From Candidatus Doudnabacteria bacterium RIFCSPHIGHO2_01_FULL_46_14 (GTDB lineage: Bacteria > Patescibacteriota > Doudnabacteria > UBA920 > 2-01-FULL-46-14), in NCBI GenBank assembly GCA_001779925.1, contig MFEK01000016.1:78504-142503 (forward strand): 64,000 nt of DNA, in the 5' to 3' direction. The translations under genes and the position numbers were made by a program. The notes beneath the pieces were generated by a model. It was not told the DNA's origin, did no database searches, and worked only from the letters and a program-made list of their open reading frames with translations. Shown here one piece after another: positions 911 to 47,146 of this stretch; within the stretch, counting starts at the first letter, position 1, and each line of letters opens with the position of its first letter.

Positions 911-1519
911 ATGGCAAAGATGAATCAGTTGGAAAAATTTTTTGTGAACAGCCGGCTCCAATACTATTTGCACAGATGGTTTGGTTTTGGCAGATTTCTT
1001 GAAAAATTACCCTCGACATCTTATGGAGATATTTTAGAAATTGGGGCAGGGGTAGGCTTCACATCGCAGTTATTGTCAGAAAAATATCCTAATGCCAGAA
1101 TCCTAGCTACGGATTTTGACGAAGGTTCAATTGAAATCGCAAAACAGAAAAAACATTCGTCTAACATCTCATTCCATCAGGCGGATGCAACCAAACTGAC
1201 GCTTTCCGATAGTCAATTTGATGCTGCCTTTTCTATCTTGACGCTCCACCATATTCATGATTTTGAAAATGCAATTGCCGAACTTGCCCGTATCGTCAAA
1301 CGAGATGGTGATGTTTATATCATGGATATGCCATCGGCTTCGTTTAATTTTACTCATTTTAGAAGGAACGTTGTTCCGGGAGTCTTTACAAAGAGTGACT
1401 TGATAAAAATAGGAGAAAGGCACGGCCTCAAAATGCAAGATTGTGGAGGCAAGTATTTATTTAAGCTTTGTGGAAAAAAATATGATAAACCGGCCCAAAA
1501 AATATGCACTTTCAGCTAG
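911..1519 (+). CDS. Class I SAM-dependent methyltransferase
   Basis: Motif I ILEIGAGVGFTS and Rossmann-fold layout. The stop overlaps the start of the downstream TrmB-like gene. Confidence 0.7.
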   Translation: MAKMNQLEKFFVNSRLQYYLHRWFGFGRFLEKLPSTSYGDILEIGAGVGFTSQLLSEKYPNARILATDFDEGSIEIAKQKKHSSNISFHQADATKLTLSDSQFDAAFSILTLHHIHDFENAIAELARIVKRDGDVYIMDMPSASFNFTHFRRNVVPGVFTKSDLIKIGERHGLKMQDCGGKYLFKLCGKKYDKPAQKICTFS

Positions 1520-2244
1520 TCTTGCAACAACTTGGATTATCCGAACATGAGGCAAAACTTTATCTTGCTTCTTTGAAAATGGGCGAGGCCAATATCGCAG
1601 ACTTGGCGCAGGCTTTGCAATGGCCGAGATCCACCGTAAAAGAACTGGCGGAGGCCATGCACAACAAAGGCCTGATGCATTTCTACGTCAAACACGGCCG
1701 AAGATACTGGATTGCGGAAAATCCTGACAAGCTCATGATCAATTTGGAGGAACGCCGGGCGGCCCTCAAAACCATCATGCCTAACCTCCAGGCCATGCGC
1801 TCGGAAATCGGCGGTAAACCCAATGTTCAGCTTTACGTGGGAGCACAGGATATCAAACAGATTCTCGATGACATTATCGAGACCAAACATCATATAGCCG
1901 CCCTAATGTCTCATGATGACTGGCTGGATACTTTTGGCGAGGAATATACCAACGATTTTATCGAACGGCGCAAGTCTCATTTCTTAAGAATGAGGCTCAT
2001 TGCACCGCGTACGGATTTTACCACGCGCCTCAAGCAAAAAGACTCGGAAAGCCTGCGGCAAACCCGATTTTTGTCCGAACATATTGACCTGCGGCGCACT
2101 TCCAATTTTATCTACAACGGAAAAACCGCGGTAATTTCCCTGAACCAAAAGCGGCCGACCGGCATCCTCATTGACGACCCTGACGTGGTGCACGCCCAGC
2201 TGATCTATTTTGAAGCTCTGTGGCACCAGAGCAGCGAGCAATAA
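1504..2244 (+). CDS. TrmB-family HTH transcriptional regulator (paralogue 1 of 6)
   Basis: N-terminal LGLSEHEAKLYLASLKMGEANIADLA winged-HTH typical of TrmB, followed by a roughly 170 aa C-terminal domain. Confidence 0.7.
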   Translation: MHFQLVLQQLGLSEHEAKLYLASLKMGEANIADLAQALQWPRSTVKELAEAMHNKGLMHFYVKHGRRYWIAENPDKLMINLEERRAALKTIMPNLQAMRSEIGGKPNVQLYVGAQDIKQILDDIIETKHHIAALMSHDDWLDTFGEEYTNDFIERRKSHFLRMRLIAPRTDFTTRLKQKDSESLRQTRFLSEHIDLRRTSNFIYNGKTAVISLNQKRPTGILIDDPDVVHAQLIYFEALWHQSSEQ

Positions 2245-11794: not shown

Positions 11795-12574
11795 TCACCT
11801 CAAACTGCTCCAGAGCTGGCGGAACCACATTACAAATGTGTCAACGATGGCTTGGTTTTCGATAATGATCCCCGAGGGATGACCGGTCATATCCAGAATA
11901 GCAATTTTATTCATCCAACATAATGTATCCGTGGGGAATTCTTTTTTCTCCTGCGGCCAGACTTTATGGAAAAAATTCTTTTGCTCATGCTTTTTTACCT
12001 GCTCGAGAAAATCCTTCAGCATAGGCGTTTCGCTGATGATTGCGTATTTGCGCATCTGCTCGTAGTAAATATGCTGATTATGTTCGATCCATCCGGGAAT
12101 CACAGTCTCCATCCGATCCGCGGAAAACACTACGTAAAAATTATACGGGCGTACCAACTTTGAAAGATCCTTGCGAATCTCCGCGTTGATGCTCTTAATC
12201 CCTTCGACCCCTTCAAAAAATCGCACCTTGGTTTTCTGCGGCATACTGCTTTGCAAAGCCTGGAACATTGGCGCAGCTTTTACCAAGTCCTTTTCTAGCC
12301 GCTGCATGTCCCTCTGTTTTCTTTCCACATAAGCTACGAGCCCGCCGTAATCTAAAGCCTGCACTTTTTTTATGCCATGCTTTTCTTCGAACTCTGCAAA
12401 AAGCCCTTTTTCTTTGAGTTGCTCGGCAATCTCATAAACATAAGTGCGGGCAACCCCCGCCTCTCTTGCGACCCGGCTAATCGGAGCGGCGCCGATTTTG
12501 AGCGCGCCTAAAAACACTTTGGTCTCATTCGTGCTCAAACCGATATCTTTCAATATCTTTTCAATTCTATCCAT
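11795..12574 (-). CDS. TrmB-family HTH transcriptional regulator (paralogue 2)
   Basis: IGLSTNETKVFLGALKIGAAPISRVAREAGVARTYVYEI winged HTH. Confidence 0.7.
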   Translation of the reverse strand: MDRIEKILKDIGLSTNETKVFLGALKIGAAPISRVAREAGVARTYVYEIAEQLKEKGLFAEFEEKHGIKKVQALDYGGLVAYVERKQRDMQRLEKDLVKAAPMFQALQSSMPQKTKVRFFEGVEGIKSINAEIRKDLSKLVRPYNFYVVFSADRMETVIPGWIEHNQHIYYEQMRKYAIISETPMLKDFLEQVKKHEQKNFFHKVWPQEKKEFPTDTLCWMNKIAILDMTGHPSGIIIENQAIVDTFVMWFRQLWSSLR

Positions 12575-12693
12575 AAATTCGTAAGTAATTTTCTTACACT
12601 ATTATATTATATCTTAGCCATAATCTCGTCAATTACTATTGAAATTGTTAAATTAATGTTTACAATTATTTTTAAATTCCTTATGATTCTTCG

Positions 12694-13683
12694 TTGAACA
12701 TTAATTTCCGCGGAATGAACACGAGTATTGATATCACAGACCTGTTCATCATGGCAGGTATTGAACACAAAGGTCGGGTACAAATAACTCACGAAGATAT
12801 GAGCGGGCTTGAACCGCACCCCAAAAACGATTGGCTTTACTTGGGACTCTTGTCTTTAAAAGAAATCGCGAAACGCGAAGGGGTTTTTATCCGCTCATCT
12901 GCGTTTATTGGGAGCGGTAATGGCATTGAAACCATAGCCGCACTGAAGCTTTTTCCAAATCTAGAAACCATTTTTATCACTGACCTGGTAAAAAATATTC
13001 AACCCGCGATCATCAAAAACATTACCGCCAATGCGAATGAAGAACTAAAAGGCATCAGAACCTACTGCTTGGAAGGACGCGACTGCTCCCCTCTTTCAGA
13101 ACCTGTTGACCTCATCTATGGGAATCTCCCCTTGATCATGATTGACCAAAGGGAAATCGAAAAACACCGCCTTTCACTCACGACTCTTACGGACGAGCAA
13201 ATGTATATGCATCTCTCGCAAGGACCGTATGATATGCTGACACGCTGGTCTCTGCTTTCTCAACTGGGATTTTTACTCAGCGCGAAAGAAAAGCTCGCAC
13301 CGGGCGGCTCTATTCTGACCTTTATTGGCGGACGAATTCCTTATTACGCAATCGAGCAGTGTTTTCGTAGAGCAGGGGTTGGCTATCGAAAGCTCTTTAC
13401 TTCGTTTAAACGACAAAGTGATGGGCAGTTTTTCAAACAGTACGCAGAATACGAAACCAAAGAAGGGGTAGATTTTGCCTTTTATGATTATAAGGAAGCA
13501 GTAGAAATCCTCCGGCAGAAGCTCGGCATAATCGCTCCAGAAATCATTGTCGATATTGAGGATGCTGATTTAAAAATCCTTCTTGCCCCAACGCTGATCT
13601 CAGCAAACAAGGCCTACGAAAATTATCAAAAAGGAATGTCGGTGGGACATATTGCGCATGCATTCGAGGCTTGGAATGACTAA
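12694..13683 (+). CDS. Hypothetical protein, possibly a Rossmann-fold methyltransferase
   Basis: FIGSGNGIE resembles motif I, ITDL a post-I acidic residue, and DLIYGNLPL a degenerate (D/N)PP(Y/F)-like motif IV. This is a weak call. Confidence 0.35.
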   Translation: MNINFRGMNTSIDITDLFIMAGIEHKGRVQITHEDMSGLEPHPKNDWLYLGLLSLKEIAKREGVFIRSSAFIGSGNGIETIAALKLFPNLETIFITDLVKNIQPAIIKNITANANEELKGIRTYCLEGRDCSPLSEPVDLIYGNLPLIMIDQREIEKHRLSLTTLTDEQMYMHLSQGPYDMLTRWSLLSQLGFLLSAKEKLAPGGSILTFIGGRIPYYAIEQCFRRAGVGYRKLFTSFKRQSDGQFFKQYAEYETKEGVDFAFYDYKEAVEILRQKLGIIAPEIIVDIEDADLKILLAPTLISANKAYENYQKGMSVGHIAHAFEAWND

Positions 13684-14578
13684 TTTATTGGGAGCGATCG
13701 GCAACACGCCGCTTGTTCAGGTGAATTTCAAAACTAACGCAAGGGTTTTTGCCAAGCTTGAATATCTAAATCCCGGCGGCAGTATTAAAGATCGCTCTGC
13801 TTTATACATGGTAGAGGAAGCGGAAAAACAAGGCTTGTTGAAACCTGGCGGCACGATTGTGGAGGCATCCTCTGGAAACCAGGGAATCGCCCTGGCGATG
13901 ATCGGCGCGGTTAAAAGATACAAAGTTATAATTACAGTCTCGGAAAAGATCAGCGAAGAAAAACTAAAAACTCTTAAAGCCTATGGTGCAAAGGTTGTGA
14001 TTTGTCCCGCCACAAATTTTATTGATGATCCAAAGAGTTATCATAGTCAGGCCAGAATCATACTGGGAAAAACGCCTAGGGGGTTCATGCCAAATCAGTA
14101 TTTCAATTTAAAAAATCCTGAGGCACATTATAACTCTCTTGGTCCAGAAATCTGGCAACAAACCCAAGGCAAGATTACTCATCTTTTCGCGGCCGCGGGA
14201 ACTGGTGGCACTGTAAGCGGAGCTGGCAAGTTCCTTAAAGAACAAAATCCTAAAATACGAGTGATCGCTGTGGACGCCGCTAGCTCTTTTGATGCGACAC
14301 GAGGACATCCGAAGCCCTACAAAATGGAAGGAATAGGTATAGATTTTAACACTCCGTGTCTTGACCGAGAAATTTTGGATGAAATTATCCCAGTCGCTGA
14401 TGATGAGGCTTTTGTCATGATGAAAATCATGGCTCGCAATCGCGGCTTGCTCGTTGGCACTAGCAGCGGCGCCGTTGCTCATGCGGTAAATCAATATGCG
14501 GAAAAATTCGAGGACGGCGATGTAGCGGTGATGATCTTTGGGGATTCCGGCAGAGCTTATTTGTCAAAAGATTATTAG
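13652..14578 (+). CDS. Cysteine synthase / cystathionine beta-synthase family PLP enzyme
   Basis: LNPGGSIKDRSALYM PLP-lysine motif and SSGNQGIALA. The real start may be ATG 13676 (MTNLLGAIGNTPL). Confidence 0.8.
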   Translation: MRMHSRLGMTNLLGAIGNTPLVQVNFKTNARVFAKLEYLNPGGSIKDRSALYMVEEAEKQGLLKPGGTIVEASSGNQGIALAMIGAVKRYKVIITVSEKISEEKLKTLKAYGAKVVICPATNFIDDPKSYHSQARIILGKTPRGFMPNQYFNLKNPEAHYNSLGPEIWQQTQGKITHLFAAAGTGGTVSGAGKFLKEQNPKIRVIAVDAASSFDATRGHPKPYKMEGIGIDFNTPCLDREILDEIIPVADDEAFVMMKIMARNRGLLVGTSSGAVAHAVNQYAEKFEDGDVAVMIFGDSGRAYLSKDY

Positions 14579-14967: not shown

Positions 14968-15468
14968 CTACTTCTTCACGAGTCCCCACTCTTGCTTGGC
15001 GATTTCTTTATCGCCGGCAAGGAGTTTCACTATATCGGCTCGCGACACAATGCCGACGAGCTTGCCGTTATCAAGCACGGGCACCGGGTTGGCTTTTTTG
15101 TGCAAAAATGTTTCAGCGAGAGTCTCGAGCGTGTCGTCCGGTTTTGCAGTCATAACCTCTTCAGTCATAACCTCTTCAACCTTGGTCGCAGTGAGAACCT
15201 CAAGCTGTTTTTCAATCTCATCGCCGTTGGCGGGGTTGTCCAGATAAACGAAGCTCCCCAGTATGCCTAAAATTTTTGGGATATGGACAGGTTCTTCCAT
15301 TTTGACCAGGTCCTGCTCAGTCACAATTCCTATGAGTTGTTCGGCCTCATCCAAAACCGGCAAACCGGAAAGACCGTTAAGATACATAAGCCTTGCTGCT
15401 TCCTTGATCGAATCATAAGGCGTACAGAAGATTACGTTTTTGGTCATTATGTCTTTGACTGTTGTCAT
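14968..15468 (-). CDS. CBS-domain pair protein
   Basis: Two tandem CBS motifs. Confidence 0.8.
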   Translation of the reverse strand: MTTVKDIMTKNVIFCTPYDSIKEAARLMYLNGLSGLPVLDEAEQLIGIVTEQDLVKMEEPVHIPKILGILGSFVYLDNPANGDEIEKQLEVLTATKVEEVMTEEVMTAKPDDTLETLAETFLHKKANPVPVLDNGKLVGIVSRADIVKLLAGDKEIAKQEWGLVKK

Positions 15469-15539
15469 AGTTTTACGAATTACGAATTTTTACGAACTTA
15501 CGAATTCGTACATTCGTATCCATTCGTTATTCGTAAAGC
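15469..15539. repeat. TACGAAT-heptamer intercistronic repeat element, palindromic copy 1
   Basis: gttttacgaattacgaatttttacgaacttacgaattcgtacattcgtatccattcgttattcgtaaagc. Fills the entire gap between the nrnA stop and the CBS gene's start. Confidence 0.6.
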
Positions 15540-16514
15540 TTAAGTTATCTTCCACCCATTCTCTGTTTTCTCTATTGTCCCTTTAAATTTAAATCCTGCC
15601 GCCAGTTTGTGTCCTCCCCCGCCGAAGCTGCGTGCAATCTCGGAAACATCCACGCCTTTGTGAGGTTCGCTGCGTAGACTTCCCTTAATCTCAGAACCGC
15701 GCTGCTTTAAAAGCATGGAAAATTTCGCTTCGGGAATGGTGTTGAGGAGCTCTACTACCCCCTCGAGATCCTCCTCGGAAGCCTGAGCTTTTTCCAAATC
15801 CTCAGCTGTAACTACAGTATATACGACTCTGGCTTTCTCATCAAAACGGGCTTGGTCGAGTGCCATGGCCCAGACCTTCAGTTTCGGCAAATCCTTTTGC
15901 GAAGAGGTAAAACGCGAAACAAGATCGAGCCTTGCGCCTTTGCGCAAAAGCTCGGCAGCGATTTCCAGAGTCGCGGCCGTGACATTAGCGTGCCGGAAAC
16001 CGCCAGTATCCGTAAAGATCCCGGTAAGCAGACAAAGCGCCATGGCCTTGTCTATTTCCACCCCCCATTCTCCGAGCATCACGTACACGAGCTCGCAGTT
16101 GGCAGCCCGGGTTTCATCCCAGACATTTACTGTTCCAAACATTTGCGTATCGTGATGATGATCAATGTTCAAAATGGATTTTTGCCAATTGTTCAGCTCG
16201 GCAAATCCGGTGCGATCGAGCTTGCCGCAGCCCATGGTAAGGATCGCGTCGTAATTAGCAAAATCTACCGGCAGTTTGTCATACACATCGCTGTGACCCG
16301 GCAGAAAAAGTAAATTTTCCGGTACCCCGCCGTACGCCATACTCCAAACCTCTTTGCCCATCCCCTCCAAAGCTCGCGCAAGCGCAAGCACGCTTCCGAG
16401 GTCGTCCCCGTCAGTGTATTCATGGGAAATCAAAATAAAACGCTTGTTAGCGTTTACCAAATCATAGGCTTTCGTAAACTCGGTTTTTAATTCACTCTTA
16501 ATCTCAATCGCCAT
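15540..16514 (-). CDS. nrnA: DHH/DHHA1 phosphoesterase (NrnA-like oligoribonuclease / pAp phosphatase)
   Basis: DHH motifs SHEYTDGDD and NIDHHHD. DHHA1 motif GGGH. Confidence 0.8.
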   Translation of the reverse strand: MAIEIKSELKTEFTKAYDLVNANKRFILISHEYTDGDDLGSVLALARALEGMGKEVWSMAYGGVPENLLFLPGHSDVYDKLPVDFANYDAILTMGCGKLDRTGFAELNNWQKSILNIDHHHDTQMFGTVNVWDETRAANCELVYVMLGEWGVEIDKAMALCLLTGIFTDTGGFRHANVTAATLEIAAELLRKGARLDLVSRFTSSQKDLPKLKVWAMALDQARFDEKARVVYTVVTAEDLEKAQASEEDLEGVVELLNTIPEAKFSMLLKQRGSEIKGSLRSEPHKGVDVSEIARSFGGGGHKLAAGFKFKGTIEKTENGWKIT

Positions 16515-16839: not shown

Positions 16840-16913
16840 TCCCTACTAAATTACGAATAGTTACCAATTACGAATCCGGATTCGTAATTGGTATTGATTA
16901 GTAATTTGTAGGG
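16840..16913. repeat. TACGAAT-element copy 2, a long imperfect palindrome between infB and rbfA
   Basis: Contains ccaattacgaatccggattcgtaattgg and outer arms ccctac/gtaggg. Confidence 0.55.
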
Positions 16914-18842: not shown

Positions 18843-18974
18843 CGCTGTTGATCCCTCTCCTTTGCAAGGAGAGGTAAAACTTTATGAATTAGAAATCATT
18901 ATGGCACTTTATTGGCATTTTTGCAATCATTCGAAAAGCGAAACGGGCGGTCCTAATGAACGCGCCCGTGAAAC

Positions 18975-19691
18975 TTACCGCTTTTTAATTTTGGCTTTTC
19001 TGCGCCGATAACGCTCTGACTCAAGACGTTGTTGTGCTCGAATTGTAATATCTTTCATTTCTTCTACACAACGACGTTCCCGCTGTCTCAATATCAGCCT
19101 TGATTCCAAAGAAAGGCCTGCGCAATCAATCGGCACCTCTATAAGGCGTTCCGCAATTGCGTCAGCGTCGGCCGCACTCAATCCGCCGCCGTAGAATCTT
19201 CGAGCCTCCCTGTATCGCTCAACAAACTCGGAGGCCGTGATGATTCTAACCAATTCGATGCCGAGTAGACAAGCAAACATACCCGCCAATGCATACTCCG
19301 CCGATTCGATAATACTGCCTGGTATCGCTGAATTAATTTTGGAGAACCAATACAGCCACTGAGCCAACCATAATTGTATTCCCGACCAGTACGGAGCGAT
19401 TAGCCACATTGGCCAAAATACGCTCCCCGCAACAATGGCTGTAATCCAAAATTGATCTTTCCGAAGCAATAAGCATGTCATGCCCGCACCGAATGCCAAT
19501 ACAATTATCAACTGCCCCCATCCTACCTGTGGGGGGATGATCTTGAAAAAAGACAGTACAAGCATCGTGAAACTCGTGCCCAATGACCAAAATGCCCGCG
19601 TTCGCACTTTATGTTTGTCTTGCAAAGCCGCCAGCGATTTTTCTTTAACCGATACCCAGACGTTGCCCCACGCCAAAACTTTACTCATCAA
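18975..19691 (-). CDS. Hypothetical polytopic membrane protein
   Basis: Multiple TM helices. Co-directional with, and immediately downstream of, TrmB paralogue 3. Confidence 0.5.
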   Translation of the reverse strand: MMSKVLAWGNVWVSVKEKSLAALQDKHKVRTRAFWSLGTSFTMLVLSFFKIIPPQVGWGQLIIVLAFGAGMTCLLLRKDQFWITAIVAGSVFWPMWLIAPYWSGIQLWLAQWLYWFSKINSAIPGSIIESAEYALAGMFACLLGIELVRIITASEFVERYREARRFYGGGLSAADADAIAERLIEVPIDCAGLSLESRLILRQRERRCVEEMKDITIRAQQRLESERYRRRKAKIKKR

Positions 19692-19754: not shown

Positions 19755-20507
19755 TCAACTCTTGATAACTTTTTCGTAAGGCACGCCTGCCATCCACGCC
19801 ATATCAAACAAAATCCGCAGGGACTGGCTCACCTCCCGGCTTTCGATCTGCACTGCAAATACTGCCGGCTTGAAAGAGAAAAAAGCCACATGATTTCCGT
19901 AAATCGCGCTGTCAGTTAAAAATTCCGGAAAACTCTTTGGTGCAAAACGGCTTTGATAATATTCATGCTGTTTTATCCAGCTGACGTACTCGATGTCGGC
20001 TGGCGTCTGGGTAAGAATTTCTCTGACTTTTGTTTGTTTGGTAATCACCCGCTCCCGCAAAAGCTTGGGCATGTCCGGGAACATGGCGAACACATCTCGG
20101 ATCGTGGAAAAAAAATCAATCGCGGGCGAGGAAAATATTTTATCATAGACCTGCCTCAAACCTTGCTTGCCTTCATAAAGCTGCACTTGGGGTTTTTCTT
20201 TTTTCGCATTGTAAACCGCGAGCAGATTGGGCATGAATCTTTTGAGGAGCTCTTCCTTGCGATTAATCTCTGTCAAAATCAGCTCCGGTGATTCGGCAGT
20301 GTATAGAGTTTTCCTGGCACGAGGCACCAGACTCACTAATCCTCGCGTTTGCAAATCATCTAAGACCAAATAAGTTGTGGGTCGTTTGGTTCCGGCTTTT
20401 TTGGCAATGGATTCTACCGAAGCCACGCCCAGCTCCAAAGCGGCCAGGTAAACGCTGGCTTCTTTGGCATGTAGCCCCAGTTTTTCTAAAGTGTCTGTCA
20501 GTTCCAT
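19755..20507 (-). CDS. TrmB-family HTH transcriptional regulator (paralogue 3)
   Basis: LGLHAKEASVYLAALELGVASVESIAKKAGTKRPTTYLVLDDL. Confidence 0.7.
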   Translation of the reverse strand: MELTDTLEKLGLHAKEASVYLAALELGVASVESIAKKAGTKRPTTYLVLDDLQTRGLVSLVPRARKTLYTAESPELILTEINRKEELLKRFMPNLLAVYNAKKEKPQVQLYEGKQGLRQVYDKIFSSPAIDFFSTIRDVFAMFPDMPKLLRERVITKQTKVREILTQTPADIEYVSWIKQHEYYQSRFAPKSFPEFLTDSAIYGNHVAFFSFKPAVFAVQIESREVSQSLRILFDMAWMAGVPYEKVIKS

Positions 20508-20520
20508 ATAATCGCATTGT

Positions 20521-20541
20521 TCCCCTCCTCGTGAGGAGGGG
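20521..20541. repeat. GC-rich palindrome cccctcctcgtgaggagggg of the CCCCTCC/GGAGGGG family
   Basis: Perfect hairpin. It is followed by a second hairpin, gaagcaatctcgggtgggattgcttc. Confidence 0.6.
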
Positions 20542-20816
20542 TTAGGGGAGGTTATTTGTCATTGCGAGGGTATTCCCGAAGCAATCTCGGGTGGGATTGC
20601 TTCGCCGACTACGGCTCGCAAAGACAGCGTAGCGAAGAATTTATATTCTGTCAATTTTTCTGACAAATTGCAAATGAACAACAAATTTTGCCTTAAATAA
20701 GGCATTATTTTCACTAATTTCTATCTAAAACTCTAGACAAATGTGTCAAAATTTGCTAATATACATCGTTACGCTGGAAATGTCTCTAGCCTAACATCAA
20801 AGCCAAAAGGAGGGTT

Positions 20817-22942: not shown

Positions 22943-22987
22943 AAACCCGGGCGAGAGCAATCTCATCGCCCGGTTTTTTATTTTGCT
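22943..22987 (+). terminator. Terminator module D, copy 1
   Basis: cccgggcgagagcaatctcatcgcccggttttttatttt. Nearly identical to 24676-24717. Confidence 0.65.
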
Positions 22988-23002
22988 AATTATCCACAGA
23001 GA

Positions 23003-23095
23003 CTCACTTACTTCACAGCCGTGAATGAAGTGAGTACTTGTTAAATTATGCTGAAGTACCCCACAGACTTCACGATCGTGAAGTCTGTGGGGTAC
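23003..23095. repeat. Two tandem palindromes of the TTCACGATCGTGAA-core family. The second is a perfect 40 bp palindrome.
   Basis: 23003-23034 is ctcacttacttcacagccgtgaatgaagtgag. 23056-23095 is gtaccccacagacttcacgatcgtgaagtctgtggggtac. Confidence 0.65.
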
Positions 23096-23096: not shown

Positions 23097-23885
23097 TTAT
23101 TTTTCTTCTCCGGTGGACTCCCAAATAAAATAAAAAAGCGAGCGCATGGTCGCGGCGATCTCTTTTGAACGGATGATGAGTCCGATTGGCTCGCTATCTT
23201 TGCGCCATAAAGCAAAAGATGCATTGTCGCCATAAATGTAGCAGTCGAGTGGCAACGGAAATTTCTTTGAATCCAAAGTTTTTACTCGGCGCAAAAAGGC
23301 AGGATCAGTTTTTAAATTCATCTCCGCTGATCTTGCGACGCCGCTCAGCAAAATATCAATTGCAATTCCGTATTTAATTCTTCTGGGAATATAATAATTA
23401 CTCGCATACTCATCAATCGCAGGATGGATGTTTTCTAAACCTACAAAATTGAGCGTCGGCTTGCGCTGATGGAGATTGTCCAAATAGATTTTCTTTACGC
23501 CTTCTACGCCTTCATAAAAAACAATTTTCGGTTTCACAGAAGCAGTTGCTAGTAACATCCGCAGCTCTGGCAGACGTTTCTGTATTAGCTCCAGTTCAGC
23601 TGCTTTTTTCTCTACATAGCTTTCCGGATCTTCTGCCACTAGAAAGCGTCTTTTGCCAATCATGGTTTCTGAGAGAAGGCCTTTGCTGAATAAATTTGGT
23701 AGGAGTTTATAGAGTGTTGGCCTTTTTACCCCTGATTTATCTGCCAAGTGTTTAGGCAATGACCTGCCCAATTCCAAGGCTGATAAATAAATGGCTGATT
23801 CGGCCTTGGAAAGTCCTAGATTTTCTAATGTTTCTTCAATATGCATATTAAAGTGTTGCAGTTTATGACACTTTATATCATGCAT
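23097..23885 (-). CDS. TrmB-family HTH transcriptional regulator (paralogue 4)
   Basis: LGLSKAESAIYLSALELGRSLPKHLADKSGVKRPTLYKLL. Confidence 0.7.
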   Translation of the reverse strand: MHDIKCHKLQHFNMHIEETLENLGLSKAESAIYLSALELGRSLPKHLADKSGVKRPTLYKLLPNLFSKGLLSETMIGKRRFLVAEDPESYVEKKAAELELIQKRLPELRMLLATASVKPKIVFYEGVEGVKKIYLDNLHQRKPTLNFVGLENIHPAIDEYASNYYIPRRIKYGIAIDILLSGVARSAEMNLKTDPAFLRRVKTLDSKKFPLPLDCYIYGDNASFALWRKDSEPIGLIIRSKEIAATMRSLFYFIWESTGEEK

Positions 23886-23961
23886 TATTTACTTTATCTC
23901 GTCAACAATATATGATCCAAAGTCACAATAGACACAAATTGTGACAGAAATTGGAGGAACG

Positions 23962-24120
23962 ATGACAGTTGAAGAAGGAATGTCCCGTGCCATTGAGATT
24001 GCAAAACAGCTTGCTGTGCAAATTGGTTGGAAACGACAAGGTGAAACCAGTGCATATTACGCACTAACTGTTGCAATTCTCGCCGCAGCAATCTTCAGCC
24101 GCATGGGAGGAGAAGAATGA
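23962..24120 (+). CDS. Small hypothetical protein (52 aa), translationally coupled (ATGA overlap) to the next gene
   Basis: SD ttggagg before ATG 23962. Hydrophobic C-terminus. Confidence 0.4.
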   Translation: MTVEEGMSRAIEIAKQLAVQIGWKRQGETSAYYALTVAILAAAIFSRMGGEE

Positions 24121-24668
24121 TCGAACAATTTCGAGTTACAAAACATAACGGGGAGGACCCTTACTATCCCGTCCGCTTCACAGCAGTGCTTCCCGAAAAA
24201 AAGCCTCTCAAGGCCCTGGTTAAGGAAGTCGTGAAAGCCATCTGTAATTGGAAAGCTCCCTGGGGTAAGGTCTTCGAGATTTACTGCGACAATCCCGCGT
24301 ACATTCCTTACAACTATGTTAAAACTGATGAAAAACGCGGAGTGGCGGCGTTTGTCCTTCTTCAAGAAAGACCTCTCATTGCAATCCTTCAAGGACCTGC
24401 AAGAGCATGGGATGAAGCTATCTACGCAATACGTCTGGAAGGTGACGTTGTCCGAGGCTGGCGCATTGAACACGGCTCTGGTTACCACGGACCTGATGGC
24501 GATGCATTCGGCAACCACTACCGATTCGTTCTGACAGAACTCAAAGCCGGAGTGCTGCGCTACACTGCAATGACCAAAACAGATCGGAGGAAAAACGATC
24601 AAGGTGTATGGACTTCGAAAATTCAGGATACTCCAAAAGAAATAGACCTACTCGCGGAGATACCCTAA
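24117..24668 (+). CDS. Hypothetical protein (183 aa)
   Basis: SD gggaggag. No recognised motif. Confidence 0.5.
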   Translation: MIEQFRVTKHNGEDPYYPVRFTAVLPEKKPLKALVKEVVKAICNWKAPWGKVFEIYCDNPAYIPYNYVKTDEKRGVAAFVLLQERPLIAILQGPARAWDEAIYAIRLEGDVVRGWRIEHGSGYHGPDGDAFGNHYRFVLTELKAGVLRYTAMTKTDRRKNDQGVWTSKIQDTPKEIDLLAEIP

Positions 24669-24675
24669 AAATTAA

Positions 24676-24717
24676 ACCGAGGCGAGAGCAATCTCATCGC
24701 CCGGTTTTTTATTTGCC
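24676..24717 (+). terminator. Terminator module D, copy 2
   Basis: aaccgaggcgagagcaatctcatcgcccggttttttatttgcc. Confidence 0.65.
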
Positions 24718-24767
24718 TAAATGAACCACCCCCGCAGCAAGCTGACGGGGTATCATAAGCCTACGAT

Positions 24768-24806
24768 TCACCCCTCCCTAACCCTCCCCATCAAGGGGAG
24801 GGAAAA
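24768..24806. repeat. Family-A GC-rich hairpin element, copy A1
   Basis: tcacccctccctaaccctccccatcaaggggagggaaa. It is 38/39 nt identical to 58651-58690 and close to 47147-47186. Confidence 0.7.
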
Positions 24807-24858
24807 AGCAGGGAACCGCGGCAAGCCGCGGGGAATTAGACCCGGGGAGATTAAATAG

Positions 24859-24897
24859 TGACCCATAGGATTCACGATCGTGAAGTCTGTGAGTCAT
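24859..24897. repeat. TTCACGATCGTGAA-core palindrome with chimeric arms
   Basis: tgacccataggattcacgatcgtgaagtctgtgagtca. The left arm resembles the 29235 copy and the right arm the 23056 copy. Confidence 0.6.
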
Positions 24898-24945: not shown

Positions 24946-25809
24946 TCAAAACTGCCGGGATTTGCCGACGATCATTTTGATTTTTTGTTTCGCGACCTTT
25001 ATTATTGCGGGGGCTTTGGTGTAGACTTGCCCCTCAATAGAGAGCGGTAGTTTCCGCGGGCCAAGGACTTCGATCTGTTTGGCGTGCATGATGGTAGCGC
25101 CGGGCACATTGTCGAGACAGCCGGTAGCCAGCTCACGGCGGTAGCGGATAATTTGCCCGCTTGCAAGTTTGTTCAGTAATAAAATATCGAGAAGTTTGTC
25201 AGTGGGATCCCCGAGTTTGACCTTGCACCCGGCGTTATTGCGGCAATTGATAATCTGCGCGCCCAACACCTCTGAGGAAACCCGAAACGAATCATCAAGC
25301 TCAAGCTGTACCTCGAAAGGTGCTAGCCTCATGAATGTGCGCACGCTTGATAGGCCCATAAACCCGGGCTCGATCTGGGAAAACTGATTTTCTCCAAGCT
25401 CCACCTTGGATAAAAAATAATGCTCATTAATCTCACCCAAATCCAGGCTCGCTACCAAGCGACCTGCCAAAGTCTTTACTGAAAGCTCGATGTCAGGCGT
25501 GATCCCGAAAATCTGCCCTAACCTGGAATCTGAATCAAGCGAAATAAAGCCCACAGTAATGTCAGCGTGATGGCGCACCAAGGCATTGATAGCGCGGTTG
25601 AGCGTACTATCCGAGCCTACCACAATGATAGTTTTGGCCTCAAGGCCAATGGCTTGATCCACCAAAAGCTCCACGGTTCGGATCGAGGTCACCCGATAAG
25701 TCTCCCCTTCTATATGGTGTTCCGCGATCAGGTTCAGGAGGCGTCCTTGGATGCGCTCAAAATATTTGACTTCTTTGTCCTTTCCCGGATCAAAGATATA
25801 AAAATACAT
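24946..25809 (-). CDS. Diacylglycerol/lipid kinase catalytic-domain protein (YegS/BmrU-like)
   Basis: IIVVGSDSTLNRAINAL...GFISLDSD matches the DAGK_cat pattern. Confidence 0.65.
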   Translation of the reverse strand: MYFYIFDPGKDKEVKYFERIQGRLLNLIAEHHIEGETYRVTSIRTVELLVDQAIGLEAKTIIVVGSDSTLNRAINALVRHHADITVGFISLDSDSRLGQIFGITPDIELSVKTLAGRLVASLDLGEINEHYFLSKVELGENQFSQIEPGFMGLSSVRTFMRLAPFEVQLELDDSFRVSSEVLGAQIINCRNNAGCKVKLGDPTDKLLDILLLNKLASGQIIRYRRELATGCLDNVPGATIMHAKQIEVLGPRKLPLSIEGQVYTKAPAIIKVAKQKIKMIVGKSRQF

Positions 25810-25895
25810 GGCTTTACGAATTACTAATCTTTACGAATATACGAATCCGAATTCACATTCGTAAATTCGTACCAATTCGTTATTCGTAAAACTTT
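25810..25895. repeat. TACGAAT-element copy 3, palindromic
   Basis: gttttacgaataacgaattggtacgaatttacgaatg... read in the minus orientation. Fills the gap between the bactofilin stop and the kinase start. Confidence 0.6.
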
Positions 25896-29116: not shown

Positions 29117-29234
29117 GTCTCGAGAGCTCTCGGCTCCCCGGCAATTTCAGCCAAAGTAGGACCGACTATGCACGTCTCCTGCAGTTACACTTAATATCAT
29201 TGTAGACCTGTCATTTAAAACGTCAAGAAAAAAT

Positions 29235-29270
29235 AACCCATAGGCTTCACGATCGTGAAGCCTATGGGTT
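29235..29270. repeat. TTCACGATCGTGAA-core perfect 36 bp palindrome
   Basis: aacccataggcttcacgatcgtgaagcctatgggtt. Confidence 0.65.
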
Positions 29271-29349
29271 ATCGGATTTGAATACAAAAAACACAAGCCG
29301 CTGGACATCCATTTCTGGACGCCAGCGGCTAAGTTATCCATGCGAGCCC

Positions 29350-30180: not shown

Positions 30181-31968
30181 TTACTCTGAAACCAGCATCC
30201 CTGCCACTATCCAAAACAGCAGACTCCCCTGCTGAAGCGACAAAAAATAGTGGTCGAAAAAGCCGAGGAACAGGAAACCTGCGAATGCAGTGAGCAGAAT
30301 TAACTTCTCCTGTCCCCCGCCTGCCATCCGGCTTGAGCCGTCAGGCGATTGGCGGGCAGGCCTATCCCCCCAGCCTCTTTTAAGAATTCCGTAAAGCACC
30401 CATAGAAATGCTCCGAGCCCGAGAATCCCAGTTTCGGCAAGAAGCAGTAAATAAATATTATGGGCAGGCTGGTGTAGATGCGGCAGGAGTTTGCCATCCA
30501 TAAAAGCGCGCGGATATTTTTCAGCCATCCCGTTATCCGACGGGATCTGCGCTAATGCTACGACAAAATTGCGCAAACCCACCCCGAAAACCGGATTGTC
30601 TTTGATCTCCCTCCAAGCGGCAGAATCAAAAAGCTGGCGATCGCGAATGCTTTCGTCCAAGACCTCCCCCATCCTCGCTCCTTCCCGAGGAGGGGGGTAA
30701 ATACGGTCTTTAATTTGTTTACCAAATAGAAACCAATTGGTACTGAAAGCAATCAATAGTAATAAAATGATAACTAATAACCGGCCGGGGAGATAAAACT
30801 GATTTCCTGTTTCACGCTGAGCTGTTTCCATCCGCGCAAACACTCTGTTTCGGTGAAACCGGCTTAGAATAAACAAAATAACTAGCGCCAAAACAGTTAC
30901 CAGCCAAACTGTTCGAGAAAAGGTCAGGGTCAGGCCAGTGGAGATGAGGATGAGGGAAAGGGCAAGAAATATTTCACGCGAAATACTTTTCACCCTCTCC
31001 CGACCCCTACCCTCCCAGCCTCCGCCCGAGGCTTCGGCGGACACAGCAAGGGAGGGGAATTCCTCCCCCTTGAGGGGGGAGGATACAGGTGGGGGTGTAG
31101 TTTGCCGAGATTTAGCATAGATAAGCGAAATACTGGCAAGCAATCCAACAAAAAGGAAGGCTCCGAGCAAATTTGGATGAGGAAACGTGCCATATGGCCG
31201 AATTATAGGAATAAAATCCTTACCACCCGCCATTATTTCATCGAAACGAAGATATTTCACAGAAATAAGGCTGTGAGTATAAAATTCCGCGATTCCCTTC
31301 ATACCTGATGTAAAAAACGTTTCACCGAAATGTTGAAATCCGAGAGAATGTTGATCAAAGTACTGAAGAATGCCGATTACCGACTGAATAACCGCTCCCG
31401 TCACAATTAGCCAAAGTGTGGTCCGTATTTCTGTGAAACGTATATTTTGTTTCATGTAGAGAAAAACCAACAAAAATTCCGATATTTTCACAAAACCGTA
31501 GAAACTAAGCAACGGTTTCTGTGAAATGGTAATAGAAATGCCTAAGATAAGCCAAAAAACCATTGTGGATTTAATGAGGACATCTTGTGAAATACTGGTG
31601 TATATCTTGTGGAATAACCCCTCACAACCTCCCCTTACCTTAAGGGGAGGAGTCATCGTTGGTTTTTCCTCCCCCTTGAAATAAGGGGGATTGCCCGCCT
31701 CGCCGAGACGAGTCGAGGTCGGGAGGGGGTCATGTTTCTGTGAAACACAAATTTCATACAACCAGCTCAATATCAGAACACAAATCAATATATCTGTCAA
31801 GTATATAAAAATTGTGTGGTAAAAAATATGATAACCAAAGAAAAAACTCGTTTCTGTGAAATACGCACGGTTGATGTTAAAGGGCAAAAGTAGAACCAAA
31901 GCATAAAAAAACAGCTTGGAAAGAGGAACACTTCTTATTATTTGGTATACGCTCTTACCTTGAGGCAT
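30181..31968 (-). CDS. O-antigen ligase (Wzy_C) family membrane protein carrying three in-frame GC-rich palindromic insertions
   Basis: Wzy_C motif HLHQPAHNIYLLLLAETGILG. Polytopic. Intact 595 aa ORF despite inserts at about 30666-30699, 31001-31097 and 31620-31725. Confidence 0.65.
   Translation of the reverse strand: MPQGKSVYQIIRSVPLSKLFFYALVLLLPFNINRAYFTETSFFFGYHIFYHTIFIYLTDILICVLILSWLYEICVSQKHDPLPTSTRLGEAGNPPYFKGEEKPTMTPPLKVRGGCEGLFHKIYTSISQDVLIKSTMVFWLILGISITISQKPLLSFYGFVKISEFLLVFLYMKQNIRFTEIRTTLWLIVTGAVIQSVIGILQYFDQHSLGFQHFGETFFTSGMKGIAEFYTHSLISVKYLRFDEIMAGGKDFIPIIRPYGTFPHPNLLGAFLFVGLLASISLIYAKSRQTTPPPVSSPLKGEEFPSLAVSAEASGGGWEGRGRERVKSISREIFLALSLILISTGLTLTFSRTVWLVTVLALVILFILSRFHRNRVFARMETAQRETGNQFYLPGRLLVIILLLLIAFSTNWFLFGKQIKDRIYPPPREGARMGEVLDESIRDRQLFDSAAWREIKDNPVFGVGLRNFVVALAQIPSDNGMAEKYPRAFMDGKLLPHLHQPAHNIYLLLLAETGILGLGAFLWVLYGILKRGWGDRPARQSPDGSSRMAGGGQEKLILLTAFAGFLFLGFFDHYFLSLQQGSLLFWIVAGMLVSE
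30666..30699. repeat. GC-rich palindrome inside a CDS
   Basis: cccccatcctcgctccttcccgaggagggggg. Confidence 0.5.
31001..31097. repeat. Composite GC-rich element (family B1) inside a CDS
   Basis: ccgcccgaggcttcggcgg ... gaattcctcccccttgaggggggaggatacaggtgggggtg. Shares its ends with 58697-58795. Confidence 0.65.
31620..31725. repeat. Cluster of GC-rich hairpins inside a CDS
   Basis: cctccccttaccttaaggggagg; cccccttgaaataaggggg; cgggaggggg. Confidence 0.55.
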
Positions 31969-31982: not shown

Positions 31983-32657
31983 ATGGGGCTTCCAAAAAAC
32001 AAAGTTAAAATCGGGTGGTCGCCAGAATTTGCATATGCTATTGGGCTCCTAGTAACAGACGGTAGTTTATCAAAAGATGGCCGGCACATTAACTTTACCT
32101 CGAAAGACTTAGATCTCATAGAGACTTTCAAAAAATGCCTGCATTTGGAGAACAAGGTCGGAACAAAAACTGGTTATAGAAGAATAAAAAATATTTTTCA
32201 AATACAATTTGGTGATGTAAATTTCTATCGGTTTTTACTCTCAATAGGATTGATGCCGAATAAAACCAAAATCCTTAAGAAAATAGCCATCCCCGAGGAA
32301 TACTTCTTTGATTTTTTGAGAGGACATTTTGATGGGGATGGATCATTTAATTCCTACTGGGACCCACGATGGAAATCCAGTTTTATGTTTTATATGAACT
32401 TTGTTTCCGCCAGTGAAAATCATATAAAGTGGCTTAGAAATCGCATTTTTGAAACACTGCAAATACGCGGCCATGTCAGCAAAGCTCGACTCAGCAGTTG
32501 CTATCAGTTAAGGTACGCAAAAAAAGAATCATTAAAATTGCTGGATAAGCTCTACTATAGAAAAGTTGTCTGTTTGCATCGAAAATACTTGAAAATTCGT
32601 GATGCTTTATTTATAATTAGCAAGCTTCTAAAAAAGAGCAATGCCCGGGTGGTGTAA
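31983..32657 (+). CDS. Single-chain (double-motif) LAGLIDADG homing endonuclease
   Basis: Two LAGLIDADG-like motifs, LLVTDGSLSKDG and LRGHFDGDGSF. TATAAT sits 6 nt before the ATG. The 3' end overlaps the first ~15 nt of tRNA-Leu. Confidence 0.7.
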   Translation: MGLPKNKVKIGWSPEFAYAIGLLVTDGSLSKDGRHINFTSKDLDLIETFKKCLHLENKVGTKTGYRRIKNIFQIQFGDVNFYRFLLSIGLMPNKTKILKKIAIPEEYFFDFLRGHFDGDGSFNSYWDPRWKSSFMFYMNFVSASENHIKWLRNRIFETLQIRGHVSKARLSSCYQLRYAKKESLKLLDKLYYRKVVCLHRKYLKIRDALFIISKLLKKSNARVV

Positions 32658-32728
32658 TGGTAAACACGCTGGCTTGAGGTGCCAGTGGGGGAAACCCTGT
32701 GGAGGTTCAAGTCCTCTCCCGGGCACCA
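32643..32728 (+). tRNA. tRNA-Leu(GAG)
   Basis: Acceptor GCCCGGG/CCCGGGC, anticodon loop TTGAGGT, long variable arm, CCA encoded. Length 86 nt. Confidence 0.8.
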
Positions 32729-32730
32729 AA

Positions 32731-32805
32731 GCGCACTTAACTCAGTGGTAGAGTACTTCCTTTACACGGAAGGAGTCGGGGGTTCGAATCCCTCAGTGCG
32801 CACCA
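32731..32805 (+). tRNA. tRNA-Val(UAC)
   Basis: Acceptor GCGCACT/AGTGCGC, anticodon stem CTTCC/GGAAG, loop TTTACAC, CCA encoded. Confidence 0.8.
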
Positions 32806-33705: not shown

Positions 33706-34842
33706 ATGCAGATTGAATACGACATTGAAAAAGACAAATGGAATCAGTTCGTCGCGGACAACTCCAGCCCGGCTTCTTTCCTTCAATCCTGGCAGTGGGG
33801 CGAGTTTCAAAAATCTTTGGGATTGAAAATTCACCGGCTTGGAGTTGCAGGGGAGTCAGGTGAGTTGATTGCGGTTGCGCAAGCAATTGTCCGGCCCCTA
33901 CATCTAGGGAAAACATATTTGGAAATAACAAAAGGACCGGTCGCAAAGCGACTGGCGACTGGCTATTTGCAATTAGACTTGATAATTGAGGAGCTAAAGA
34001 GGATTGGTGAAAAAGAAAAATCCATAATGATTAGAATTAATCCCCCCTATGAAGATTTAAAACTATTCGCTAATCGCTATTCGCTAATCGCCCCCGCAAT
34101 TCTCTTGCGGCAAACCGAACCCAACGACACTGTCCTTGTTGACCTCACTAAATCCGAAGACGAATTGCTCTCGAGCATGCATGAAAAATCCCGATACAAT
34201 ATCCGACTGGCTATAAAAAAAGGCGTAAGGGTTGCGGAAAAAACGACGGACCGGTCGGCTTTTGATAAATTTTTAGAATTGATTGAAGAAACTGCCAAAC
34301 GCGATGGCATCACAGTCTGGCCGCGGGAAAGATTTGAAAAATTTCGGCAGCAGTTCATGATTCATAACTCACCCCAACCCTCCCTTACCTTAAGGGAGGG
34401 AGTTCCCCCTCTTAATTTAAGAGAGGGCGGGGGTGAGTTATTGAATTCCGATCAACCTCGCGCCATCCTCCTCACAGGCTCGTTTGAAGGCAAAATTTTG
34501 GCGGCTGCCATTGTCATGCTGTTCGGCGACAGCGGGACTTATCTGTATGCCGCGTCATCTGCAGAACAAAGAAATGCTAATGTTCCCAGCCTTGTACTAT
34601 GGGAAGCGATTCGCGCCGCAAAAATGGCTGGCAAAAAAAATTATGATATGTGGGGTATTGCGCCAGCCGGCAGTGATGAATCCCATTCCTGGGCTGGCAT
34701 CACGAGATTTAAAACCCGCTACATCAAGGCGGGGGAGACAGGGATGGAGAAACACTACACCGGTACATGGGATTTGATTTTAGATAAAACTTATCACAAT
34801 GTCTTCAAACTCGGAAAAATTTTAAAAAAAATTATAAAATAA
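33706..34842 (+). CDS. FemAB-family peptidyl/aminoacyl transferase (peptidoglycan bridge formation-like) with an in-frame repeat insertion
   Basis: FemAB N-terminal pattern KWNQFV...SFLQSWQWGEFQ. A GC-rich element at 34371-34440 encodes NSPQPSLTLREGVPPLNLREGGGEL. Confidence 0.55.
   Translation: MQIEYDIEKDKWNQFVADNSSPASFLQSWQWGEFQKSLGLKIHRLGVAGESGELIAVAQAIVRPLHLGKTYLEITKGPVAKRLATGYLQLDLIIEELKRIGEKEKSIMIRINPPYEDLKLFANRYSLIAPAILLRQTEPNDTVLVDLTKSEDELLSSMHEKSRYNIRLAIKKGVRVAEKTTDRSAFDKFLELIEETAKRDGITVWPRERFEKFRQQFMIHNSPQPSLTLREGVPPLNLREGGGELLNSDQPRAILLTGSFEGKILAAAIVMLFGDSGTYLYAASSAEQRNANVPSLVLWEAIRAAKMAGKKNYDMWGIAPAGSDESHSWAGITRFKTRYIKAGETGMEKHYTGTWDLILDKTYHNVFKLGKILKKIIK
34371..34440. repeat. GC-rich hairpin element inside a CDS
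   Basis: accccaaccctcccttaccttaagggagggag ... ccccctcttaatttaagagagggcggggg. Confidence 0.6.
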
Positions 34843-37642: not shown

Positions 37643-37733
37643 AACCCCTCCTAGCGAGGAGGGGTAAGGGGAGGTCTGGGGTTCTGTTCCACGACCCCCT
37701 CTATCTCCCCCTCATGAGGGGGAGAATCAAACT
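37643..37733. repeat. Three consecutive GC-rich palindromes downstream of rpsA
   Basis: cccctcctagcgaggagggg; ggggaggtctgggg...ccccctctatctcccc; tccccctcatgagggggaga. Confidence 0.6.
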
Positions 37734-40420: not shown

Positions 40421-40577
40421 ATTCTGTCGGTAATTCTGACAACAAATATATTATAAATAAACCAATAGAATAAAGCAAATTTAATAAATAATTATAATCT
40501 AAGCCGCTAGAATTGACATTTGTGCCAAATTTGCATACTATGGCAAGTCCACAAATGGACAGAAAAGGGAGGAAGAA

Positions 40578-40844: not shown

Positions 40845-40851
40845 GGAGCCA

Positions 40852-41142: not shown

Positions 41143-41169
41143 AGGACTGGGAGCCAGAAAAGGAGAAAT

Positions 41170-43027: not shown

Positions 43028-43060
43028 TTTTACGAATAACGAATTAGTACGAATATACGA
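43028..43060. repeat. TACGAAT-element copy 4. The start codon of the next gene is embedded in it.
   Basis: gttttacgaataacgaattagtacgaatatacgaATGgag. Confidence 0.6.
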
Positions 43061-46474: not shown

Positions 46475-46487
46475 TTCAACTCTCCTT

Positions 46488-47045: not shown

Positions 47046-47146
47046 GATTCCTCCTCTGCACCCCGCCAAAAAAGCTTGACGATGGTGACAGGGGAGTGTA
47101 TATTATTCTTATTGAGTGGCCAAGAGCACCATAGGGTGATAACTGC

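Follow-up and report, generated by a model that had tools for sequence, protein, structure and literature searches.

The window analysed here is a stretch of 64,000 nucleotides from contig MFEK01000016.1, which belongs to a Candidatus Doudnabacteria metagenome-assembled genome from Rifle groundwater, within the candidate phyla radiation (CPR, Patescibacteria). It encodes six paralogous proteins of the TrmB family (TrmB1 to TrmB6 in the order of their coordinates), and exact-sequence look-ups identified the window proteins as OGE77802–OGE77878 (locus tags A2751_01985–02430). Our analysis indicates that the TrmB proteins are probably autoregulated, palindrome-binding local regulators, which together with cargo genes form regulator–cargo cassettes between core genes. 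The TrmB family as such is known, and its large bacterial (CPR) branch is uncharacterised; CPR bacteria have very small genomes and are episymbiotic.

A sequence-only reading of this DNA had proposed six TrmB-family paralogues in 64 kb, and this count held. The six open reading frames (ORFs) are TrmB1 (1504–2244, plus strand, 246 amino acids (aa)), TrmB2 (11795–12574, minus strand, 259 aa), TrmB3 (19755–20507, minus strand, 250 aa), TrmB4 (23097–23846, minus strand, 249 aa), TrmB5 (39680–40420, minus strand, 246 aa) and TrmB6 (47196–47939, plus strand, 247 aa). All matched PF01978, the Pfam model of the TrmB N-terminal winged helix-turn-helix (HTH) domain, at 35.9–60.5 bits (gathering score 25.6). 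A profile built from the six copies and searched against every window ORF of 50 aa or more recovered exactly these six, with the next match at E = 1.4. Outside the window, ∼1.5 kb from its end and following dnaA-dnaN-recF-dciA, is a seventh copy, TrmB7 (273 aa), which also has PF01978; no further copies were found in 8.5 kb to the left or in the next 10 kb to the right. Pairwise identity among the six copies is 21–32% (21–27% for TrmB6, the most divergent) and they can be aligned over their whole length, so the C-terminal region of ∼170 aa, which has no Pfam model, is also common to all six.

An AlphaFold (AF2) model of TrmB5, made from 57 homologues, had a pLDDT (per-residue confidence) of 95 and consisted of a winged HTH (residues 1–72), a long helix (75–102) and an alpha/beta domain (108–245). 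In a Foldseek search of the PDB its top match was TrmBL2 (5bqt/5bpd, E ∼3e-14, ∼260 aligned columns), followed by TrmB (3qph, 5e-10) and then by proteins of the phospholipase D (PLD) fold on the C-terminal domain (PLD, F13 and PLD3, E ∼1e-4). The catalytic HKD motif, HxK(x)4D, is absent from all seven copies. By model and fold search, each protein comprises the winged HTH of TrmB, a long helix for dimerisation and a single PLD-like C-terminal domain that is catalytically dead. An identical order of HTH, dimerisation helix and C-terminal domain has been described for TrmB and TrmBL2 (PMC4877046). The sugar-binding subdomain of TrmB and TrmBL1 (proteins of ∼340 aa) is absent, since the proteins here stop at 246–262 aa, and family members in a representative library are likewise 240–260 aa long. 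In TrmB, Y50 is important for DNA recognition (PMC4158304); the equivalent recognition-helix Tyr is present in six of the seven copies, followed by D, E, L, K, D or G, and in the 57-sequence alignment this residue (Y47) is nearly invariant. TrmB1 has K-E in place of Y-x. The NCBIfam equivalogs for TrmB, TrmBL1 and halobacterial TrmB scored 15–29 bits against cut-offs of 500–650, and the TrmBL2 equivalog NF041141 matched only two of the six, at 17–25 bits against a cut-off of 530. With a TrmB HTH, a TrmBL2-type fold and equivalog cut-offs that are widely missed, the proteins are therefore TrmB-family members of TrmBL2 architecture and not orthologues of any characterised member. This corrects their annotation, which reads ‘sugar-specific TrmB’ or ‘hypothetical’ for proteins without a sugar-binding domain. 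Some family members have one N-terminal winged HTH and several tandem C-terminal domains (P0142, 1061 aa, with up to ∼7; also P0241, P0196, P0143 and P0140), and the C-terminal domain is therefore an autonomous, repeatable module.

The family is large. The six-sequence profile matched 3,487, 11,381 and 20,462 clusters (50% identity) at E ≤ 1e-30, ≤ 1e-10 and ≤ 1e-3, respectively. Named matches and loci from GTDB were mostly CPR (Giovannoni-, Peregrini-, Gracili-, Berkel-, Buchanan-, Moran- and Falkowbacteria and others), and a few family records bear non-CPR labels. TrmB5 has orthologues of 53–87% identity in Giovannonibacteria, Falkowbacteria and other CPR lineages, and TrmB6 has orthologues of 78–88% on many contigs. 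The TrmB2 subfamily is mostly found in Doudnabacteria (63–86% identity; Peregrinibacteria, 42%), and a TrmB4 orthologue in L185 (comparison loci carry the prefix L) is 55% identical. For TrmB1, no close relative from other organisms was present among the matches and loci examined. The paralogues are old, because orthologues elsewhere are far closer than the copies within this genome, which never exceed 32%; judged by these identities, the seven copies are ancient, deep paralogues of one large, mostly CPR branch of TrmB. We consider it very improbable that the copies were amplified here recently or arrived together on a horizontally acquired island. Such an origin would account for seven copies in 65 kb between copy-free flanks and for the dispersed repeats that flank TrmB4; against it, the copies are too dissimilar for recent duplication, which we rejected, most have closer orthologues in other lineages, the core genes infB, rbfA, rpsA, gyrA, tyrS, ruvC and dnaA are interleaved with them, and GC content is even across the window.

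To place the density of copies in context, we used 80 CPR loci from GTDB that are centred on TrmB5-like genes (1.33 Mb, found via a TrmB5 orthologue alignment). These held 51 additional full-length copies, i.e. 2.5 per 64 kb (1.7–3.6 depending on the distance from the central gene), with an over-dispersed distribution (seven copies in 20.7 kb in L046, five in L072), and the family made up several percent of the ORFs in the sampled loci. Metagenome loci centred on tyrosyl-tRNA synthetase (TyrRS) had no TrmB copies in ∼105 kb of CPR-like DNA; one of them, the CPR-like L114, shares the dnaA/yidC/PBP/tyrS/ruvC/yebC synteny of the window (PBP, penicillin-binding protein). This is a weak background, since the TyrRS scan returned mostly non-CPR contigs and only ∼9 CPR-like loci. 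Six copies per 64 kb is above both backgrounds (Poisson P(≥6) = 0.04 against 2.5 per 64 kb); compared with the surroundings of TrmB genes in other CPR genomes, the local density is 2–3 times as high. TrmB-rich stretches recur in CPR. Density alone, however, shows nothing about co-option, which the sequence-only reading had derived from it.

In five of the six copies, the gene's own promoter or leader contains a palindrome that overlaps or abuts promoter-like hexamers. Conservation was compared for TrmB2, TrmB4, TrmB5 and TrmB6, and the site is conserved in orthologues of all four. The candidate TrmB2 operator, AATTGT-N13-ACAATT (AATTGTTAAATTAATGTTTACAATT, 12643–12667), lies just 5′ of the −35 of TrmB2; a promoter scan gave two promoter-like sites for the divergent operon, and the palindrome overlaps both. 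It is the near-palindrome that had been noted in this divergent promoter from the sequence alone, and three TrmB2 orthologues (L183, L184 and L185) have AATTGTC/AATTCGTC-N11-GACA(A) in the same place; the window palindrome is a degenerate copy of AATTGTC-N11-GACAA. The candidate TrmB4 operator, TAAAGTGT-N11-ACACTTTA (23849–23875), has perfect arms and lies between the ATG and the −10 hexamer of a promoter-like site (23905→23877); the L185 orthologue keeps AAAGTGT-N11-ACACTTT at the corresponding place. This ATG (23846) is likely the true TrmB4 start, although the ORF reaches 23885. In the window sequence, a second palindrome, GTCACAAT-N8-ATTGTGAC (23922–23945), lies in the divergent region that TrmB4 shares with its neighbour.

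For TrmB5, the candidate operator TCTGTCGGTAATTCTGACAAC (TGTC-N9-GACA, 40423–40443) ends 4 nt before the ATG and fills the short leader. Orthologues in L012, L013, L014, L015 and L019 keep TTGTC-N9-(G/A)ACA, ending 3–4 nt before the ATG in four and 11 nt before it in L019. A Shine-Dalgarno sequence is absent from TrmB5 and from these five orthologues, and neighbouring genes have a strong GGAGG. TrmB6 has a promoter-like site, TTGACG-17-TATATT (47076–47104, plus strand; promoter scan), with an aligned counterpart TTGAC-N17-TAnAAT in L092, L097 and L181. Directly 3′ of its −10 is a 40-bp block (47111–47150), a candidate double operator ATTGAGTGGCCAAGAGCACCATAGGGTGATAACTGCCACC (GGTG/CACC) with alternating GTG/CAC half-sites every 9–11 bp. 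The core of the block is invariant in five orthologous loci, the rest of whose intergenic DNA is unalignable, and the site pattern is unique in the window (0.00 expected). The TrmB3 palindrome, TCTGTCAATTTTTCTGACAAA (20647–20667), is again TGTC-N9-GACA; it lies ∼150 nt upstream of the ATG and overlaps the promoter-like TTGTCA-17-TAAATT. Reading the TrmB1 upstream region for palindromes revealed none.

A search for one operator shared by all six copies found none; the sites are specific to subfamilies. They have a common architecture, namely a TGT-N11-ACA core in TrmB3, TrmB4 and TrmB5 with subfamily-specific variants around it, a pattern expected for diversified, autoregulated HTH dimers. Exact TGTC-N9-GACA occurs twice in the 64 kb (0.48 expected), both times 5′ of a TrmB gene (TrmB3 and TrmB5; chance ∼8e-4). 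In 78 CPR loci from GTDB, we compared the 270 bp upstream of TrmB genes with other non-ORF DNA of the same loci. TGTC-N9-GACA was 28 times denser in the TrmB-upstream zones (P = 1e-9) and the N10 form 18 times (P = 2e-7). Enrichment was weaker for N8 and N11 and not significant for N7, N12 and N13 (ratios 1.5, 0 and 4.6; P ≥ 0.1). Other GC-containing palindromes behave alike (AGTC-N10-GACT, 11 of 14 occurrences).

We propose that each protein, as a dimer or tetramer, would bind a subfamily-specific 17–40-bp palindrome in its own promoter, situated either 3′ of the −10 hexamer and before the start codon or beside or across the −35. A protein bound at such a site would repress its own gene and, where the control region is shared, would affect the divergently transcribed neighbour too; the C-terminal domain may sense a ligand. 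Regulator and divergent cargo form small cassettes in variable slots between core genes that differ between relatives. The palindromes near start codons might instead be RNA hairpins in the mRNA leader that control translation or stability. Located 3′ of the −10 and 5′ of the ATG, the TrmB4 and TrmB5 sites would be transcribed, these leaders lack a Shine-Dalgarno sequence, and the TrmB3, TrmB6 and TrmB7 leaders contain extra hairpin repeats. Arms of 4–8 bp around loops of 9–13 nt of variable sequence would, however, make weak hairpins, and sites of the same class lie 5′ of or over the −35 in TrmB2 and TrmB3, where they are untranscribed. Moreover, dimeric HTH sites typically keep their spacing constant while the spacer sequence varies freely, and the TrmB sites known so far are palindromic and lie at the transcription start (PMC4158304). 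We therefore regard control by RNA hairpins as unlikely.

The structural match raises another alternative, in which the proteins are nucleoid-associated, TrmBL2-like chromatin proteins that coat DNA with low specificity and the palindromes are incidental. TrmBL2 is the best structural match, with equal length and domain order, and acts as a global repressor that is abundant on the chromosome (PMC4158304; PMC4877046); the high copy number would also fit. This is hard to reconcile with palindromes that are subfamily-specific and keep their position in orthologues, or with the dependence of their enrichment on spacing. Nor would seven paralogues of such low identity, with differing recognition-helix residues, be expected of a chromatin protein, and the TrmBL2 equivalog scores are far below the cut-off. 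A chromatin role is, in our assessment, distinctly unlikely.

Gene arrangement also points to local regulators with divergent cargo. All copies but one of the seven are transcribed divergently from the gene upstream. Among the GTDB loci, 103 of 123 family members (84%) had a divergent upstream neighbour, compared with 389 of 1097 other ORFs (35%; P = 2e-25), over a gap with a median of 219 bp; their downstream orientation was unremarkable. Radical-SAM proteins (SAM, S-adenosylmethionine) accounted for 19 of 100 divergent partners (seven with SPASM and three with a B12-binding domain; examples are L072:8499–9632, L072:11756–13048, L046:2080–3366 and L057:8433–9536), but for at most 1 of 133 randomly chosen ORFs of the same loci. 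A CxxxCxxC proxy gave 18 of 100 partners versus 16 of 1044 (P = 1e-11). The radical-SAM partners fall in several unrelated subfamilies, and other divergent partners include four glutamine synthetases and several methyltransferases or binding proteins.

In the window, the clearest cassette is that of TrmB2, which is divergent from a two-gene cargo (12694–14578, plus strand) consisting of a methyltransferase (12694–13683) and a pyridoxal phosphate (PLP)-dependent CysK-like enzyme (13652–14578), the pair that had been named from the sequence alone. The first has a class I SAM-methyltransferase fold (AF2 pLDDT 93; best Foldseek match MmtN, E = 6e-13), and the second matched PALP at 2e-72, the only family found in a Pfam scan of ten neighbour proteins. 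In L185, the TrmB2 orthologue likewise has this pair in divergent orientation (68–70% identity), and the whole cassette of TrmB2, MmtN-like methyltransferase and PALP is kept (68–75% identity) but sits between infB and rbfA. L183 has a TrmB2 orthologue without that cargo in the gyrA|yebC slot, which in the window holds the TrmB6 module. The TrmB2 module thus occupies three different core-gene junctions in three Doudnabacteria, and the gyrA|yebC slot carries different TrmB modules in different relatives, which supports the cassette idea.

TrmB6 is divergent from a pair of genes, u193 and the membrane protein u182 (45926–47069, minus strand), that recur in orthologous loci (u182, 41% identity in L092 and 59% in L180; u193, 49% in L180), and this pair is its likely partner. 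Downstream of TrmB6 lie a Gp49 (HigB-like) toxin gene and an HTH_3 antitoxin gene (47946–48559, plus strand), the HigBA-like pair to which the earlier reading had linked it. The close relative L180 keeps the pair, but L092 has DUF4258/DUF2283 in its place, and L097 and L181 lack it. We therefore rejected TrmB6 as its regulator; the pair was probably inserted there opportunistically and is not a likely target. The Gp49 gene next to TrmB6 is called in L008 and missing from L009, two contigs with identical TrmB5.

The remaining neighbourhoods also correspond to what had been described. TrmB1 overlaps by 16 nt the 3′ end of a UbiE/BioC-type SAM methyltransferase gene (911–1519, plus strand; Pfam, NCBIfam), which lies downstream of csoR-copA. 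TrmB1 is the sole copy within a co-directional unit, and is the tail gene of this copA-methyltransferase unit. On the 3′ side of TrmB3 is a protein with three hydrophobic, transmembrane-like segments (18975–19691, minus strand), followed by infB-rbfA-nrnA. TrmB4, in an island of repeats and flanked by repeated hairpins, is divergent from a 52-aa ORF and a 183-aa ORF (23962–24668); in L185 its orthologue lies directly upstream of infB, whereas in the window TrmB4 and infB are separated by additional DNA that includes TrmB3. TrmB5 is followed by a 124-aa orphan gene and is divergent from three small orphan genes (40578–41679).

These comparisons bear on the view put forward by the sequence-only reading, that every paralogue specifically switches on and off the neighbours listed there and that density reflects co-option for accessory modules. 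Divergent arrangement with shared control regions, the conserved TrmB2 cassette in L185, the variable slots and L046, which repeats the pattern of regulator plus small genes with its seven copies in 20.7 kb, all speak for such switches. The notion of local switches stands in so far as palindromes lie in the copies' own promoters and most copies are divergent, but the partner is the divergent gene and not always the gene that had been named. The HigBA-like pair is swapped for another toxin–antitoxin pair or lost in other TrmB6 loci, no TrmB5 neighbour, including the downstream gene proposed as its partner, is conserved in orthologous loci, the L185 TrmB4 orthologue adjoins a core gene, and there is no operator common to all copies. 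TrmB1, moreover, ends its unit and does not head it. Dedicated switching of the listed neighbours is accordingly possible, though we would not favour it.

Several observations count against our preferred interpretation, that of autoregulated regulators in regulator–cargo cassettes. TrmB1 lacks both a palindrome and the conserved Tyr and lies inside an operon. For TrmB5, only the gene and its own site persist between orthologous loci, and its conserved site supports autoregulation only. No further site of the TrmB3/TrmB5 type was found in the window or flanks, so no target besides the regulators themselves was identified here, and in other genomes exact TGTC-N9/10-GACA accompanies only ∼15% of family members. 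TrmBL2, the nearest homologue with a solved structure, shows little sequence specificity in DNA binding, the TrmB4 and TrmB5 sites next to the ATG could act in the mRNA leader, and the gene calls for other loci were crude ORF calls.

More broadly, and tentatively, CPR/Patescibacteria may have in this family of TrmBL2 architecture their main expandable family of transcription factors, with members that act as autoregulated sensors in movable regulator–cargo cassettes, with about one-fifth of the cargo being radical-SAM/SPASM proteins. If so, cassettes pile up into TrmB-rich stretches in some lineages (seven copies in 65 kb here, and L046), and a simple operator code, the TGT-N11-ACA core with subfamily-specific flanks, would allow regulons to be reconstructed across thousands of uncultured genomes. 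A literature search found no paper connecting TrmB with CPR. The analysis offers operator predictions with coordinates and a regulator–cargo rule, both of which can be addressed without cultivation.

The window also contains repeats. A dispersed hairpin family, CCCCTCCC..GGGGAGGG, occupies intergenic DNA and sometimes lies within ORFs, with copies at 24762–24805, 37683–37726, 47142–47185, 58645–58688, 18851–18874, 31059–31082, 52271–52294, 31614–31653, 34364–34441 and 20521–20542. Copies lie 15–17 nt upstream of the ATG of TrmB3, TrmB6 and TrmB7, and we considered these CCCCTCC..GGAGGGG hairpins as a TrmB-specific leader element, which was rejected because the repeat is dispersed throughout the window. 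In the TrmB6 leader, the hairpin repeat CCCTCCCC..GGGGAGGG (family D2/D4, 47160–47184) lies between operator and ATG; it is absent at that position from L092, L097 and L181, and L180 has a different insert. The repeat is translated in the TrmB7 C-terminus and in a TTG-extended TrmB6 ORF. This extended ORF of 285–287 aa is probably a miscall, and in some metagenomes TrmB6 is called at 285–317 aa by read-through of the repeat. Pipelines disagree on starts (NCBI has 221 aa for TrmB1 and 249 aa for TrmB4); operator positions favour 246, 249 and 247 aa for TrmB1, TrmB4 and TrmB6, respectively.

A second dispersed palindromic family, TTTACGAAT(N)ACGAAT ... ATTCGT(N)ATTCGTAAA, lies at gene ends in copies that are 79–95% alike (15467–15541, 16848–16907, 25808–25894, 43024–43063 and 57530–57569). 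The cassette of TrmB4 and the 183-aa gene is bracketed (22943–23095 and 24674–24897) by direct copies of two elements, one resembling an intrinsic terminator (AAACCCGGGCGAGAGCAATCTCATCGCCCGGTTTTTT, copies 91% identical) and the other a 45-nt palindrome (ACCCATAGG.TTCACGATCGTGAA..) with a third copy at 29228–29272. Long palindromic inserts resembling miniature inverted-repeat transposable elements, with TGTC...GACA-type ends, occur in TrmB leaders (window 20552–20640, L184:9885–9995 and L180:4015–4075) between promoter/operator and ATG. Different genomes have different elements at this place, so that insertion there seems to be preferred.

The window is ordinary chromosome close to the replication origin, adjoining dnaA. 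It contains infB-rbfA-nrnA, rpsA, gyrA, RNase J, yebC-ruvC, tyrS, a class A PBP, yidC-rnpA and dnaA together with 12 tRNA genes, and an Rfam scan of the window returned nothing beyond tRNAs. Core genes (infB, rpsA, gyrA and dnaA) are interleaved with the TrmB copies, and the window is therefore not an accessory island; GC content is uniform along it. TrmB7 follows the dnaA group, and among the 80 TrmB5-like loci dnaA lies within 10 kb in eight (L019, L024, L029, L041, L056, L071, L079 and L087; ∼5 times chance, P ∼2e-4). A TrmB-like gene is found 1–2 kb upstream of dnaA in L041 and L087, with yidC in between in L087. A tRNA-Ile with anticodon TAT lies at 48585–48661, and a LAGLIDADG-like ORF (weak Pfam match, 31983–32805) abuts a tRNA-Leu/tRNA-Val pair. 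Contigs with identical TrmB5 also show strain-level variation in the region of window 42027–42323, where a BrnT toxin gene 5′ of the CopG antitoxin gene is called in L009 and not in L008.

Among known systems, the closest in architecture is TrmBL2 of Thermococcales (PF0496/TK0471), a tetrameric protein of ∼250–264 aa with HTH, dimerisation helix and one C-terminal alpha/beta domain, and likewise without the sugar-binding subdomain; as noted, it is the best Foldseek match of the TrmB5 model. Sequence similarity is limited to the HTH, with the equivalog cut-off missed by more than 20-fold. TrmBL2 is a single, highly conserved archaeal protein whose binding is of low specificity and covers coding as well as intergenic DNA (PMC4158304), whereas here many divergent paralogues occur per bacterial genome and five of six have candidate palindromes, most of them conserved. 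The archaeal sugar-sensing regulators TrmB, TrmBL1 (Tgr) and VNG1451C share the PF01978 HTH with its recognition-helix Tyr. Their operators (TACT-N3-AGTA, TATCAC-N5-GTGATA and TACT-N7-8-GAGTA) lie at or near the transcription start, and they repress by promoter occlusion, with autoregulation in some members (PMC4158304). The palindromes described here, as computational candidates, parallel these sites in position, and the TrmB6 core, CAC-N6-GTGAT, resembles half-sites of the Thermococcales glycolytic motif (TGM). Operator sequences and spacings differ (TGTC-N9/10-GACA and others), and the host is bacterial, with sigma-70-type promoters. In layout, the cassettes resemble LysR-, TetR- and MarR-type pairs, in which a regulator is divergent from its cargo over a control region of ∼200 bp, with palindromes overlapping both promoters and with autoregulation, which we infer here; the family and the fold behind the HTH are different, the presumed sensor domain being PLD-like.

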